The notes under the pieces: generated by a model
Database searches by the model: none
What the model was told of the DNA's origin: nothing
What the model saw: the letters and a program-made list of their open reading frames with translations, nothing else
Origin: Candidatus Atabeyarchaeum deiterrae
GTDB lineage: Archaea; Asgardarchaeota; Atabeyarchaeia; Atabeyarchaeales; Atabeyarchaeaceae
Assembly (NCBI GenBank): GCA_037310415.1
Contig: CP147780.1
Coordinates: 288,001-352,000, forward strand
Direction of reading: 5' to 3'
DNA length: 64,000 nucleotides
Shown here: positions 33,483-50,810 of the stretch, in pieces
How positions within the stretch are numbered: the stretch's first letter is position 1
Layout of the letters: the number at the start of each line of letters is the position of its first letter
Position numbers and translations under genes: made by a program

Positions 33483-34195
33483 ATGAAGGATCTAACTGAT
33501 GCTAAAGAGAAGCTCAAACAGCGTTTCATTGAAGAGGGTATTGTGAGCAGCTCAAGTGTCATTAATGCATTCATGAATGTCCCCCGGGAAGAATTCGTTC
33601 CCCCGAACATTAGGGAAGATGCGTACGACGACCGCCCGCTTCCAATAGCAGCTGGTCAAACAATAAGCGCACCACATTACTTGGTCTGTCCCAAGTAAGG
33701 TGAAACATGGTTGTCATAATGTGCGAGCAGCTGAGGCTGGAAGAAGGGAATAAGGTATTGGAGGTAGGGGCAGGCTCAGGTTACCATGCAGCTATTTGCG
33801 CGGAAATTGTTGCTCCACCTGCATCTAATAATCCTGGATACGTCTACTCGGTAGAGAGAATATCATCTTTGGCGAAATGGGCCAGGGAGAATCTGAAGAG
33901 AACTGGATACGCTAATCGTGTGAAGGTAATCGTTGGAGATGGGACAATGGGTTATCGAGAAGCCATGCCTTATGACAGGATACTTGTCACGGCTTCGGCG
34001 CCGAGAATACCCGAACCACTGGTAGAACAGCTGAGAGTAGGGGGCACAATGGCAATACCGATAGGGGAAAAGTATGGCTGGCAAGAGCTTGTTCTTGTCA
34101 AGAAAGTGAAAGAGGAAGAAGTTGTTACAACTAATTTTGGTGGAGTAGCTTTTGTGCCGCTAATCGGCGAGCATGGCTGGAATAACGAAGAATAA
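33483..34195 (+). CDS. pcm: Protein-L-isoaspartate O-methyltransferase; two exons, 33483-33675 and 33705-34195 (227 aa spliced)
   Basis: VPREEF, AYDDRPLPI and GQTISAPH in exon 1; MVVIM, VLEVGAGSGY, GDGTMG, PYDRI and FVPL in exon 2; joined in frame after removing 29 nt. Confidence 0.9.
33676..33704 (+). other. Candidate BHB-type mRNA intron (29 nt) in pcm
   Basis: CACC-ACA-TTACTTGG-(TCTGTC)-CCAAGTAA-GGTG-AAA: a 4-bp helix, two 3-nt bulges and an 8-bp stem; canonical cuts give CCA CAC ATG (P-H-M). Confidence 0.85.
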
Positions 34196-34388
34196 CACTT
34201 GTTCGTCCTTCTTGTTTCTTCCATCGCATTGTCGCCAGCAAGGTAAGTCTTCAAGAATCCTCGATGCAGATGTTTCTATTCTCACGGGTTGTTCAAAGTT
34301 TATATATAGGGGTAGAATCGAGAATAGAGAGTATCGTTGGAGTAGTTTGACTCAAGGCGGACGGTGAATTACAACGGCAGTAGAGATA

Positions 34389-35216
34389 GTGAAGAAAGCA
34401 CTCCAATTGAGATCACAAGGATCCACCGAAGAAGCGGCGAAGCTCTATTTGCAGGCTGCAATCGACTTTGAGAAGAATGGAAAAGTTGCCGATGCGGCTC
34501 AAGCATACAACGAGGCAGGACTACTTCTGGCTGAAACTGGAAAAGATGAGGACGGCGTGAAGCTCTACCTCAAAGCAATTGAGGCTTTCGACAAAGTGAG
34601 AGACTCAGAAGGAAAAGCTGATTCCAGCTACAACGCCTGTGTCGCCTTCAACAATCTAGGATCTTACGAAGAAGCTGCCAAAAACTGCTCCGTTGCCTTA
34701 AAGATCTACGAGGAATCAAAGAGTGAGGAGAAAATGGGAGACGCACTGTACGGCCTCGGACTCGCATACATGGGTCAAGGCAAGTTCGATGATGGATTGA
34801 ACTTGTTCAACAGGGCACTTGACATATGCAAGAGAATGGGCAACTTTGAAGGAATCATGAGTATCTCTCTTGATATCGGCAACACGTATCTCAAGAAAGA
34901 GGATTTTGAAAAAGCACTTGATTCTTTCAAATCAGCTCTATCCGTTGCTCAGAAGCTGAAGGACGACGGAAGCATAGCTGATACTCTCAGCGCCATGGGA
35001 GAAGCATATGAACTATCTGAAGACTACAGAAGATCCGCCGACTCGTTTTTGTCCGCGGCGGAAAAATACTTGAACGCAGGAATGGGGGAGCTGGCAGAAG
35101 AATACACTTATCGTATCGAGAACCTGCTTCCAGAACTCACCAGTGTGACAGCCGACAAGATGAAGAAGAGAGTAGAAGAGATACGTAGTGGGATTACCAA
35201 GCAGCAAAAACAATGA
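34389..35216 (+). CDS. Tetratricopeptide-repeat protein
   Basis: Repeated A..Y..A, ALYGLG.AY...G and DIGNTY TPR patterns. Confidence 0.85.
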   Translation: MKKALQLRSQGSTEEAAKLYLQAAIDFEKNGKVADAAQAYNEAGLLLAETGKDEDGVKLYLKAIEAFDKVRDSEGKADSSYNACVAFNNLGSYEEAAKNCSVALKIYEESKSEEKMGDALYGLGLAYMGQGKFDDGLNLFNRALDICKRMGNFEGIMSISLDIGNTYLKKEDFEKALDSFKSALSVAQKLKDDGSIADTLSAMGEAYELSEDYRRSADSFLSAAEKYLNAGMGELAEEYTYRIENLLPELTSVTADKMKKRVEEIRSGITKQQKQ

Positions 35217-35265
35217 TCCTTCCTAGATGTTAACAAACACAGCAGACAGGAAAATCAACTCAGGA

Positions 35266-48578: not shown

Positions 48579-48690
48579 GATTGAATAAAACGCAATCGCA
48601 GGCGAGTGCCTGCTGAGTCTTGAGGACAACTATAAATACCGAACTGTCCATTATTACTTGTCTAAATAGGTTAGACTGAGGATTCTGATC

Positions 48691-49284
48691 ATGAGCAGTG
48701 AATCGGAAATAGTTGACGTCTTATCAAGGGTAGCGAATATCTTTCTTCAGGCCGTAGATGCTCTCGAAAGCAGGATGTACACCATAGAGCAAAGAATCGA
48801 GCAAATTGAAAGGGCATTAGTTGATTCAAGAACGATGGGGGCTCCCGCGGCTAGTAGGGGTCCGCCTCCAGACAATCGAGGAATTCTACCTGCAATAGCG
48901 CAGGAGACTAGGAGAAGTCCTCCACCACCGGTGACTGCTCCGCCTGCACCAATGCCCCAGCAACCCCAAGCTTATGGTGCTCCTCAGCAACAGTGGGGAG
49001 CCCCAAGACAAGATGCTTATCAACAGCCACCTCCCCAAGGCTATCAAGCAAGGCCACAACCACCTCCGCCACAGCCGCAAGGATACCAGCCGCAGAGCCA
49101 ACCTCAAGGATATCAACCGCAGCCGCAAGGTCAGCCGCAGGGTTACCAGTCTGCGCCACCTGGACAGCCGCAACAAGCGCCTCCGCCGACCTCAGGGAAT
49201 CCATTAAACGTGCGTCAGGCCGTCACAGGTGAGCTCAAAGAGATCTTTGCCAGAATGAGAGCCCGGGCTGAGGGGAGAGGATAA
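48691..49284 (+). CDS. Protein with N-terminal coiled coil, Pro/Gln-rich linker and C-terminal amphipathic helix
   Basis: TATAAATA upstream; composition visible in the translation. Confidence 0.75.
   Translation: MSSESEIVDVLSRVANIFLQAVDALESRMYTIEQRIEQIERALVDSRTMGAPAASRGPPPDNRGILPAIAQETRRSPPPPVTAPPAPMPQQPQAYGAPQQQWGAPRQDAYQQPPPQGYQARPQPPPPQPQGYQPQSQPQGYQPQPQGQPQGYQSAPPGQPQQAPPPTSGNPLNVRQAVTGELKEIFARMRARAEGRG
48955..49190 (+). repeat. Coding low-complexity PQ/QGYQ repeats
   Basis: QGYQ four times (caaggctatcaa, caaggataccag, caaggatatcaa, cagggttaccag) among poly-P/Q runs. Confidence 0.75.
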
Positions 49285-49401
49285 ACTGGCGACTCTGTGT
49301 AGAGTACGTTCTTTTCCGTCAAGAAGGCGACAGACTGGCTGAAAACTAGGCGTGGCGTTATTTCTAGTTACGATAGGCTCTTAAGAGGAATCTATTATTC
49401 G

Positions 49402-50810
49402 TTAGAAGTAGTCGGAGAGGCTTTGTTGAGCGCGGTCTCCCTGTTTCGGTTTTGCCGCGGTTTGATCCTTTGCTCTCAGTGATTCTTTCTTCTCGTTGAG
49501 ACTGTTGCTACTTTCGACTGGAGGTGCCTCATCTTCGAATATTATTGGGTAACCATACGTGCCGTCGTACCCTGGTCTGAAGCGAATCTTTTTCTCCCTG
49601 ACTCTGAGGATCGCATCGGCGAGTCTTGCTCCTGAAATTGAAGATATTTCTTCTCTTGAAGCTTCGAGAAGAACATGTAACTCATTGGGAAACTTCTTGA
49701 GCAGTTTGCCATATTCTTCCCAGACACCTTTTGCAAAGACGTCTTTCATCCCCAAGGCAACGGAGATTATCTCTTGAAGTGGGATCAAACAAACATAAGG
49801 TATGGCACCCTGGAGTATGTAGCCCTCAGGTCTATCGGCTAGTTCCTCGATCCTATGCAGAACGCCAACTGTCAGCTTTTTCCTACAAACAGGGCACATG
49901 TTCCCATACTTAGAAGCTTCTTTCGGACTAAGTACGACGTTACAGTCTCTGTGACCAGTGTAATGATATTTCCCATACTCTGGATTTGTCTCAATTGTCA
50001 TCAAGAACCTTTTGGGGTCCTTCTTGCGGATCACGTCAATTATCTCTTTATATGTTACCCCATCCAGTTGAAACACATTTGCTTCCCTGCCAAGACGGTA
50101 GGGCCATGGACTATGGGAGTCGCTGTTGCTCACCAACGTATATTTGTCCAATGCAGAAAGTCGCCAGTTCATCATGGGGTCAGAGCTTAGACCTGTCTCA
50201 ATCGCATGGACGTTCTTTGTTTGGTCTTGGAAACACTCCTCAATACTGTCAAATCCACTCCTTGAGCCAAACAATGAGAACCATGGAGTCCATGCATGTG
50301 CTGGAATTACCTCGTTCCAGTTATCAATTTCCATTATGACCTCAGTCAGTTCTGCAGCTGCAACTCTTAGCTTTGGCCTTCCGTCTGAGTTGAGGTCACC
50401 GTACTTTGAGATTCTGTCAGCTACTTGGTCGGCCACATCTAGGTTCGGACACAAGATTATGAGGTGGATTCGTTTTGGCTCTCCTTTGGACTGGAACCCA
50501 GCCTCAACTTCGCAGGTCGCCATGAAGCGCACTGACTCTGCAGCATTTGCATTGTTTAGAACATACAGCCCACTGTTATCAACCTCTGACAAAGAAGATT
50601 TGCATTCTGCAAGCCATCTCGGCATTGTGAATTGGAGACTCGTCTACTTCAGAAGGACTTGCAGCACGAGTTATCCCCTGTGCCGAGGAGAGTCAGACCC
50701 TTCATCTTGGCTTGTCTCTCAAGGTTGACTAGATTCATTTGTTCGCTAGTGGCAGCTGAGTACTTGCTGTGGATATGGAGGTCTGCAATAACTTTCAGAC
50801 TAGATTCCAC
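49402..50810 (-). CDS. Endonuclease Q-type PHP-domain nuclease; two exons, 50810-50673 and 50631-49402 (455 aa spliced)
   Basis: ADLHIHSKYS and GTGD in exon 1; FTMPRW, IHLII, PAHAWTPW, ETGLSSD, SNSDSHS, GKYH, CPVC and GYDGTYG in exon 2. Confidence 0.88.
50632..50672 (-). other. Candidate BHB-type mRNA intron (41 nt) in the EndoQ-type gene
   Basis: Minus strand GGGG-ATA-ACTCGT...ACGAGT-CTCC-AAT: a 4-bp helix with one G-U, two 3-nt bulges and a 6-bp stem; canonical cuts give GGG GAT TTC ACA (G-D-F-T). Confidence 0.85.

Follow-up and report, generated by a model that had tools for sequence, protein, structure and literature searches.

The window analysed here is a stretch of 64,000 nt from the archaeon Candidatus Atabeyarchaeum deiterrae (contig CP147780.1, positions 288,001 to 352,000; window coordinates are counted from its first letter). 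Two of its protein genes, which lie about 17 kb apart, pcm and a gene of the endonuclease Q (EndoQ) family, are each broken by a short insert. It is very likely that each of these genes holds an obligate bulge-helix-bulge (BHB) intron, which would be cleaved out of the transcript in vivo by the tRNA-splicing endonuclease EndA and whose flanking exons would be ligated by RtcB. Counting these two, protein genes throughout the genome hold at least nine such introns, a set seen in Asgard lineages that are rich in tRNA introns. The motif, the restoration of the frame, the covariation, the presence of the inserts in the DNA and the genes of the enzymes were all observed directly.

The two open reading frames (ORFs) of pcm (33465..33698 and 33707..34195, + strand) sit in different frames and both match the PCMT family. 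The DNA between them reads CACC-ACA-TTACTTGG-TCTGTC-CCAAGTAA-GGTG-AAA. In the central helix (H), CACC at 33670-33673 forms four base pairs with GGTG at 33699-33702, and each strand is followed on its 3' side by a 3-nt bulge (ACA, 33674-33676; AAA, 33703-33705). An intron helix of 8 bp is formed by TTACTTGG (33677-33684) and CCAAGTAA (33691-33698), and the motif was also recovered by the BHB scan. The intron, which is of phase 1, contains the inner hairpin (33677-33698) as well as the GGTG strand of H. The cut rule applied throughout this work is cleavage after the second base of each of the 3-nt bulges that flank the 4-bp central helix. Its application removes 33676-33704 and yields GQTISAPH|MVVIMCEQL, the predicted junction peptide being ...TISAPHMVVIMCEQLR. 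On the PCMT profile of 210 positions, exon 1 occupies 3-60 and exon 2 occupies 61-208, so that the halves abut exactly at 60|61 and jointly cover the PF01135/TIGR00080-type match at 3-208; with the NCBIfam equivalog models they abut at 64|65 (exon 1 being positions 4-64 of PRK13942). This is the single pcm match in the genome. Unspliced, the gene would yield a 77-aa stub. Gene callers split it into products of 77 aa and 162 aa in the Logan assemblies of four runs, which agrees with the suggestion in the original prediction that such introns are misannotated as split genes.

The same rule was applied to the EndoQ-family gene, whose ORFs lie at 50810..50649 and 50625..49402 on the - strand. The order of elements is GGGG-ATA-ACTCGT...ACGAGT-CTCC-AAT. 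In the central helix, GGGG (50678-50675) pairs with CTCC (50637-50634) with one G-U pair, ATA and AAT are the bulges, and the inner helix of 6 bp is formed by ACTCGT (50671-50666) and ACGAGT (50643-50638). An outer exon helix of 7 bp (50687-50681 with 50624-50618) is found beyond an internal loop. Excision of 50672-50632 gives GTGD|FTMPRW (predicted junction peptide ...LLGTGDFTMPR), and continuous orthologs align colinearly with the joined product. Both the N-terminal PHP motifs and the C-terminal domain of the family are matched (TIGR00375/MJ0043_C), although the split of the gene keeps the TIGR00375 score under the equivalog cut-off. The Atlas structure neighbours of exon 2 are endonuclease Q/MJ0043_C clusters with TM scores of 0.87-0.91. 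The gene is therefore placed in the endonuclease Q family, with a predicted activity on deaminated bases; the unspliced message would give a stub of 53 aa. Taken together, the claim of two BHB inserts that follow the canonical cut rule was borne out to the nucleotide, and the positions at which it placed them, 33670 and 50678, are the exact starts of the two central helices.

The only other EndoQ match in the genome is a 54-residue fragment with a stop. It lies in an 80-codon open stretch (G000:C1:1101128-1101289, +) with 87% identity to residues 117-170 of EndoQ exon 2 and one TGA, and it resembles a stray piece of a gene. Shortly past the end of the EndoQ gene, the opposite strand (window 48691-49284, +) carries an ORF of 197 aa with a long Pro/Gln-rich low-complexity middle part in which QPQGYQ is repeated.

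Both inserts show the central helix and the two bulges of an archaeal BHB intron, and the intron-side helix h' is strong in both (8 bp in pcm, 6 bp in EndoQ). Nevertheless, BHB-like motifs are found about once per 100 nt (~640,000 candidates on both strands) and at nearly all gene boundaries, so that the geometry by itself is weak proof. The case rests instead on the restoration of frame and motif, on a decoy test and on the covariation in pcm. Genome scans based on the motif alone, whether for strict BHB, with ORF joining, with coding potential or with A-N-A bulges, gave no excess over controls in which the 3' cut was shifted by 1-2 nt. Counting introns from the motif alone was dropped for this reason, and also because real introns tolerate a mismatch adjacent to the bulge, as in cbf5 and glyA.

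The covariation was obtained from the pcm loci of 30 relatives. An insert of 28-32 nt is present at the identical codon in nine genomes from five families, including one relative with a single contig of 3.6 Mb; pcm is uninterrupted in the other 21 (e.g., GQTISAPHMCIIM). The inner helices of the carriers are unrelated in sequence, yet they are always paired (TTACTTGG, CAGCTAGCA, TAGTTAGCCCG, CGAAAA, TAGAGAAG and TAAAGGGCTT), and the central helix is either CACC/GGTG or CGCC/GGCG. The exonic wobble base of the Ala codon covaries with its partner in the intron, this pair (12/45 of the alignment) being GC in seven sequences and AU in two. In the pcm alignment (A2), 97.2% of the cells are paired and compensatory changes are seen in 8 of the 12 pairs, among them all seven pairs of the inner helix. 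None of 500 shuffles reached either the pairing or the covariation score of the data, and slid controls pair at 27-47%. The comparison of orthologs, proposed with the original prediction as a check on intron presence and stem covariation, thus comes out in its favour. The resolution of the pcm protein tree is too low to separate one ancient gain from several, and the tree is compatible with a single origin.

In the case of EndoQ, the intron site is occupied in one family only, by inserts of 41 nt in this genome, 54 nt in G001 and 53 nt in G002; the gene is continuous at the 50632-50672 site in other relatives. Covariation is uninformative here because there are only three sequences. A second EndoQ intron site, AYG|KYH, was found in another family, where inserts of 28 nt in G028 (L048) and 32 nt in G037 (L049) form a canonical BHB at ~2135-2170. 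At the same site, G008 (L047, ~2140-2170) has an insert of 29 nt for which no canonical BHB fold was drawn. As for pcm, the orthologs of family f4 contain one in-frame stop, TAA or TGA, within the exon-2 region (G026:C1:2274026-2274463 and G005:C43:167089-167529), which may reflect an intron at another site or recoding.

Further introns were looked for in a screen that is blind to the BHB motif, in which the ORFs of a complete Odin-like relative of 1.418 Mb (G003), with continuous pcm and EndoQ, were run against this genome. At 12 places, the alignment of a single protein fell into two parts separated by additional nucleotides. Nine of these are protein genes with 28-53 extra nt, namely pcm, EndoQ, cbf5, valS, glyA, gatE, MTAP, a radical-SAM gene and a RuBisCO-like gene (Table 1); the number is a lower bound, as it comes from one small comparator with ~870 ORFs giving usable matches. 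In all nine, only one placement yields a product that is free of stops and runs colinear with the ortholog, and the motif is found exactly there, with no mismatch in H in seven genes and one in the other two. The 5' bulge is A-N|A in every case and the 3' bulge begins with A in eight. When placements were shifted as decoys, the helix-plus-ANA pattern was seen in 11 of 720 (1.5%), compared with 9 of 9 for the true placements. Eight of the nine introns are of phase 1, and we infer that this bias arises because the invariant A at the first base of the bulge then falls on a wobble position. The cbf5 intron splits the catalytic Asp codon of GTLDP. No similarity was found among the nine intron sequences, which gives no hint of a mobile intron family. 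In each of the nine genes, conservation in the junction window exceeds the mean for the gene (combined p 0.03), a figure on which we do not rely since detection is biased towards conserved junctions.

The three remaining places were set aside. Two of them were marked by spurious comparator ORFs in the ribosomal RNA (rRNA) operon (G000:C1:463021-465606, -), which carries 19 and 35 nt extra relative to G003 that may be small rRNA inserts. The third is an additional stretch of 213 nt, in frame, by comparison with the G003 ortholog (G000:C1:2261400-2261600, -); it has no convincing BHB and is probably an ordinary insertion. With a second comparator, G026, by which 1.2 Mb was covered, the radical-SAM intron was found again, and a candidate at 2166 kb proved to be false as the ORF is continuous. 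Sensitive local tblastn around the orthologs gave no additional cases. The expectation that mRNA introns may be common in this genome therefore stands in part: at least nine were found, but the verified density is about 1 per 300 kb, against which the two within 64 kb stand out as a local excess.

Table 1. Location of the exons, introns and related elements; G000:C1 entries are genome coordinates and all others are window coordinates
Feature	Location	Strand	Remarks
pcm exon 1	33465..33675	+	start codon uncertain; last base is the first base of the His codon
pcm central helix, exonic 5' strand	33670..33673	+	CACC; second base is the wobble base of the Ala codon
pcm intron	33676..33704	+	29 nt, frame-breaking; exon-1 frame meets TAA at 33696-33698
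pcm exon 2	33705..34195	+	stop codon included; PCMT profile 61-208 of 210, E 2e-44
EndoQ exon 1	50673..50810	-	PHP-domain N-terminus ...DLHIHS...LLGTGD; TIGR00375 positions 2-39
EndoQ intron	50632..50672	-	41 nt, phase 0, in-frame TGA
EndoQ exon 2	49402..50631	-	stop codon included; TIGR00375 E 7e-58
tRNA-Lys(CUU) gene	32687..32799	+	D-arm interrupted by a 36-nt BHB intron, 32710-32745
cbf5 intron	G000:C1:395677-395717		41 nt, 43.7 kb past the window end; H CTCT/AGAG, bulges AGA and TAA, exon helix GGGA/TCCC
valS intron	G000:C1:457151-457181		BHB-blind screen
glyA intron	G000:C1:652709-652749		BHB-blind screen
rio2 intron	G000:C1 near 771195-771246		by inspection; fits BHB with one A-C mismatch
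radical-SAM intron	G000:C1:919007-919059	-	BHB-blind screen
MTAP intron	G000:C1:938160-938197	-	BHB-blind screen
gatE intron	G000:C1:2222226-2222266	-	BHB-blind screen
RuBisCO-like intron	G000:C1:2663481-2663508	-	BHB-blind screen

The same motif is present in a tRNA gene of the window. In tRNA-Lys(CUU), AGGT (32704-32707) pairs with GCCT (32740-32743) and the bulges are AGA and AAA. ARAGORN finds no tRNA in the unspliced window and calls tRNA-Lys(ctt) only after excision of 32710-32745, which confirms that the tRNA intron suspected at 32710 is real; Rfam gives a partial tRNA match at 32733-32788. In the whole genome, a single contig of 2.76 Mb, ARAGORN calls only 24 tRNAs, nearly all of them intron-bearing. 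It was reported that 92-95% of the tRNA genes carry introns in complete genomes of Atabeyarchaeia and Freyarchaeia (PMC11291895).

The enzymes needed for BHB splicing are encoded in the genome, as the search for endA and rtcB recommended with the original prediction has established. There are two EndA paralogs with 33% mutual identity, each with an N-terminal and a catalytic domain. The alpha paralog (238 aa) has the catalytic His region and the beta-like paralog (198 aa) is without an aligned His, which fits an alpha-beta heterotetramer. RtcB is encoded in one copy. Alpha-beta EndA has been reported for Asgard archaea and is able to cut relaxed motifs (PMC5829648); a correspondingly broad specificity is predicted for the enzyme of this host. 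The habitat is wetland and freshwater sediment. The host was taken to be an Asgard-type archaeon, and an actin match of 454 bits and ~19 strong Ras-family GTPases in the genome agree with this. A Bathyarchaeota affiliation, which an Atlas match to an EndoQ cluster would suggest, is countered by the same actin and GTPase complement.

From these data the following route is proposed. The exon-intron junctions in the transcript would fold into the 4-bp helix flanked by two 3-nt bulges, in which the intron's 3' end would be paired with bases of the exon, namely the 5' strand of H plus bases 1 and 2 of the bulge. A heteromeric alpha-beta EndA, the same enzyme as for the heavily interrupted tRNAs, would cut each bulge after its second base. 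RtcB would then ligate the exons to give one open frame and a full-length enzyme, and the intron would probably leave as a small circle. Most likely pcm and EndoQ are spliced constitutively, as introns of the set lie in single-copy essential genes.

Several observations weigh against BHB splicing of these two genes. The exon-side helix h adjacent to the central helix is only 1 bp in both, so that the "exact BHB geometry" of the original prediction is right for the central helix and the bulges, with the caveat that the motifs belong to a relaxed class, HBh'. Relative to the structure of minimum free energy, the BHB conformer is computed to be less stable by 3-4 kcal/mol, and the local-fold z-scores are unremarkable (-1.7 and +0.1). 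Given the weak exon helix and a BHB conformer above the minimum, an enzyme of broad specificity would be needed. A search for RNA runs with this organism gave no match. Exon 2 of pcm opens with an ATG behind a Shine-Dalgarno-like GGTGA (window 33698-33709, where GGTG is the 3' strand of the central helix), and separate translation of two PCMT polypeptides is conceivable in this one genome.

This last point belongs to an alternative in which the genes are really in pieces or in decay: the inserts would be small palindromic insertions in the DNA, the pieces would be translated separately or be pseudogenes, and no RNA would be spliced. The separate products given by gene callers, the ATG of pcm exon 2 and the inner helix, an inverted repeat as in miniature insertion elements, are in keeping with it. 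We nevertheless consider it very improbable. The pcm insert is fixed at one exact site in five families, and its sequence has turned over fully while the pairing has been kept, including that of the exonic wobble base. The Shine-Dalgarno-like GGTG is replaced by GGCG in 7 of the 9 relatives with the pcm intron, so it is the pairing of the helix that is conserved and not the look of a ribosome-binding site. Moreover, valS, gatE and cbf5, essential genes of single function, are interrupted likewise, one cut rule is obeyed by all nine inserts, and EndoQ exon 1 alone would give a stub of 46 aa. Ribosomal recoding, in which the ribosome would bypass or shift frame across the gaps of 29 and 41 nt with no processing of RNA, is extremely unlikely. 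There is a hairpin in each gap, and in Crenarchaeota the cbf5 introns were at one time mistaken for sites of translational frameshifting (PMC2738675); however, no matching take-off and landing codons were seen at the gaps, the gaps range from 28 to 54 nt among orthologs with the BHB register invariant, and the same motif occurs in a tRNA, which is not translated. An artefact of assembly or sequencing, which the original prediction had named as a possible refutation, is effectively refuted. In contigs that cross the two sites, from runs of separate studies made in different years, neither an indel nor a deletion variant was seen (run X1 is from freshwater sediment in 2022 and run X2 from wetland in 2024; the contig of X8 begins 8 nt before the pcm intron). 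Independent genomes have inserts at the same site, and identical split products are encoded in the Logan assemblies made from four runs. Metagenome contigs contained no exact match to the spliced-junction string of either pcm or EndoQ. Self-splicing group I or group II introns were rejected, the inserts being 29 and 41 nt; the Rfam scan of the window gave tRNA as its sole match and no group I or group II ribozyme core.

The original prediction also proposed that the splicing could act as a stress switch, comparable to that of IRE1/HAC1, with BHB introns removed conditionally to gate the production of repair enzymes. The proposal is by analogy, RtcB being known to ligate also XBP1/HAC1-type exons (also cited in PMC5829648), and it is in our view highly unlikely. 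Its premise of a common theme of deamination repair was lost when the other seven hosts turned out to be unrelated housekeeping enzymes, several of them essential (tRNA synthetase, amidotransferase, SHMT, pseudouridine synthase, MTAP, radical SAM and RuBisCO-like). No sensor nuclease is implied, as the motif is an ordinary EndA substrate common to tRNAs. A weak exon helix could in principle lower the efficiency of splicing, yet there is no evidence of regulation, and the presence of introns in single-copy essential genes argues for constitutive removal. BHB splicing of pcm and EndoQ by EndA and RtcB is the explanation that we retain.

Since 2002, archaeal introns in coding sequences have had one textbook entry, crenarchaeal cbf5, with one more intron in a 5' untranslated region (UTR). 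The BHB intron in the cbf5 pre-mRNA of Crenarchaeota was reportedly described by Watanabe in 2002 and by Yoshinari in 2006. The likeness to the present introns is close: they too lie in a catalytic or conserved motif, their removal would be by a hetero-oligomeric EndA and the genes are misannotated as split or frameshifted. Indeed, the 41-nt cbf5 intron of this genome is in the same catalytic Asp codon that is split in Crenarchaeota (Yokobori 2009, PMC2738675). The differences are that other genes are interrupted here too (pcm, EndoQ and at least six more), in an Asgard lineage and with many introns per genome instead of one; splicing was shown experimentally there, whereas here it is predicted from the gene sequences. 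A primary paper of 2020 stated cbf5 as the only coding-region example (PMC7714728), and a paper of 2025 on EndA substrates cites cbf5 studies alone for protein-coding introns (PMC12397907).

With the BHB introns of archaeal tRNAs, including those of the intron-rich Atabeyarchaeia and Freyarchaeia (PMC11291895; bioRxiv 10.64898/2026.10.13.758758), the present introns share the motif, the cut rule, the A-rich bulges and presumably the enzymes; the difference is that the substrate here is an mRNA, so that excision must preserve the reading frame. Introns in protein genes are not mentioned in either of these two reports. In Haloferax volcanii, HVO_1309 provides another mRNA as a natural EndA substrate, but its BHB intron is in the untranslated 5' leader and the coding frame is uninterrupted (PMC7714728). 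The IRE1-dependent splicing of HAC1/XBP1 is likewise an enzymatic splicing of mRNA that is independent of the spliceosome, changes the reading frame and involves RtcB-type ligation; unlike the present case, it uses another nuclease and twin stem-loops instead of BHB and is regulated by stress. A full-text literature search on mRNA introns in Asgard archaea, with subscription journals outside its scope, found no publication. The chemistry is thus that known for crenarchaeal cbf5; what is new is the occurrence in many genes per genome, in Asgard archaea and with a recognisable signature.

A wider reading, to which we give an even chance, is that ~1% or more of the protein genes, essential translation genes included, have acquired endonuclease-spliced introns through their spread in the Asgard classes rich in tRNA introns (Atabeyarchaeia, Jordiarchaeia/Freyarchaeia and neighbours). 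The introns would stay at fixed positions over timescales of the family level, with nearly all of them in phase 1 and within conserved motifs. As the exon supplies half of the splice signal, a protein-catalysed mRNA-splicing step would be routine between transcription and translation. If true, this would provide a natural model for intron-bearing, splice-dependent gene expression in the closest prokaryotic relatives of eukaryotes. Processing of the RNA would have to precede translation of these messages, which bears on the coupling of transcription and translation in Asgard archaea, and also on the persistence of introns in genes without a spliceosome. On the practical side, intron-bearing genes that are called as fragments or pseudogenes distort gene counts, estimates of completeness or contamination, and metabolic reconstructions in these lineages. 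The A-N|A bulge, the preference for phase 1 and the exonic wobble base within the helix make a rule that can be tested. Compared with one textbook case, there are at least nine coding introns in this genome, two of them within the window, and they are conserved across families.

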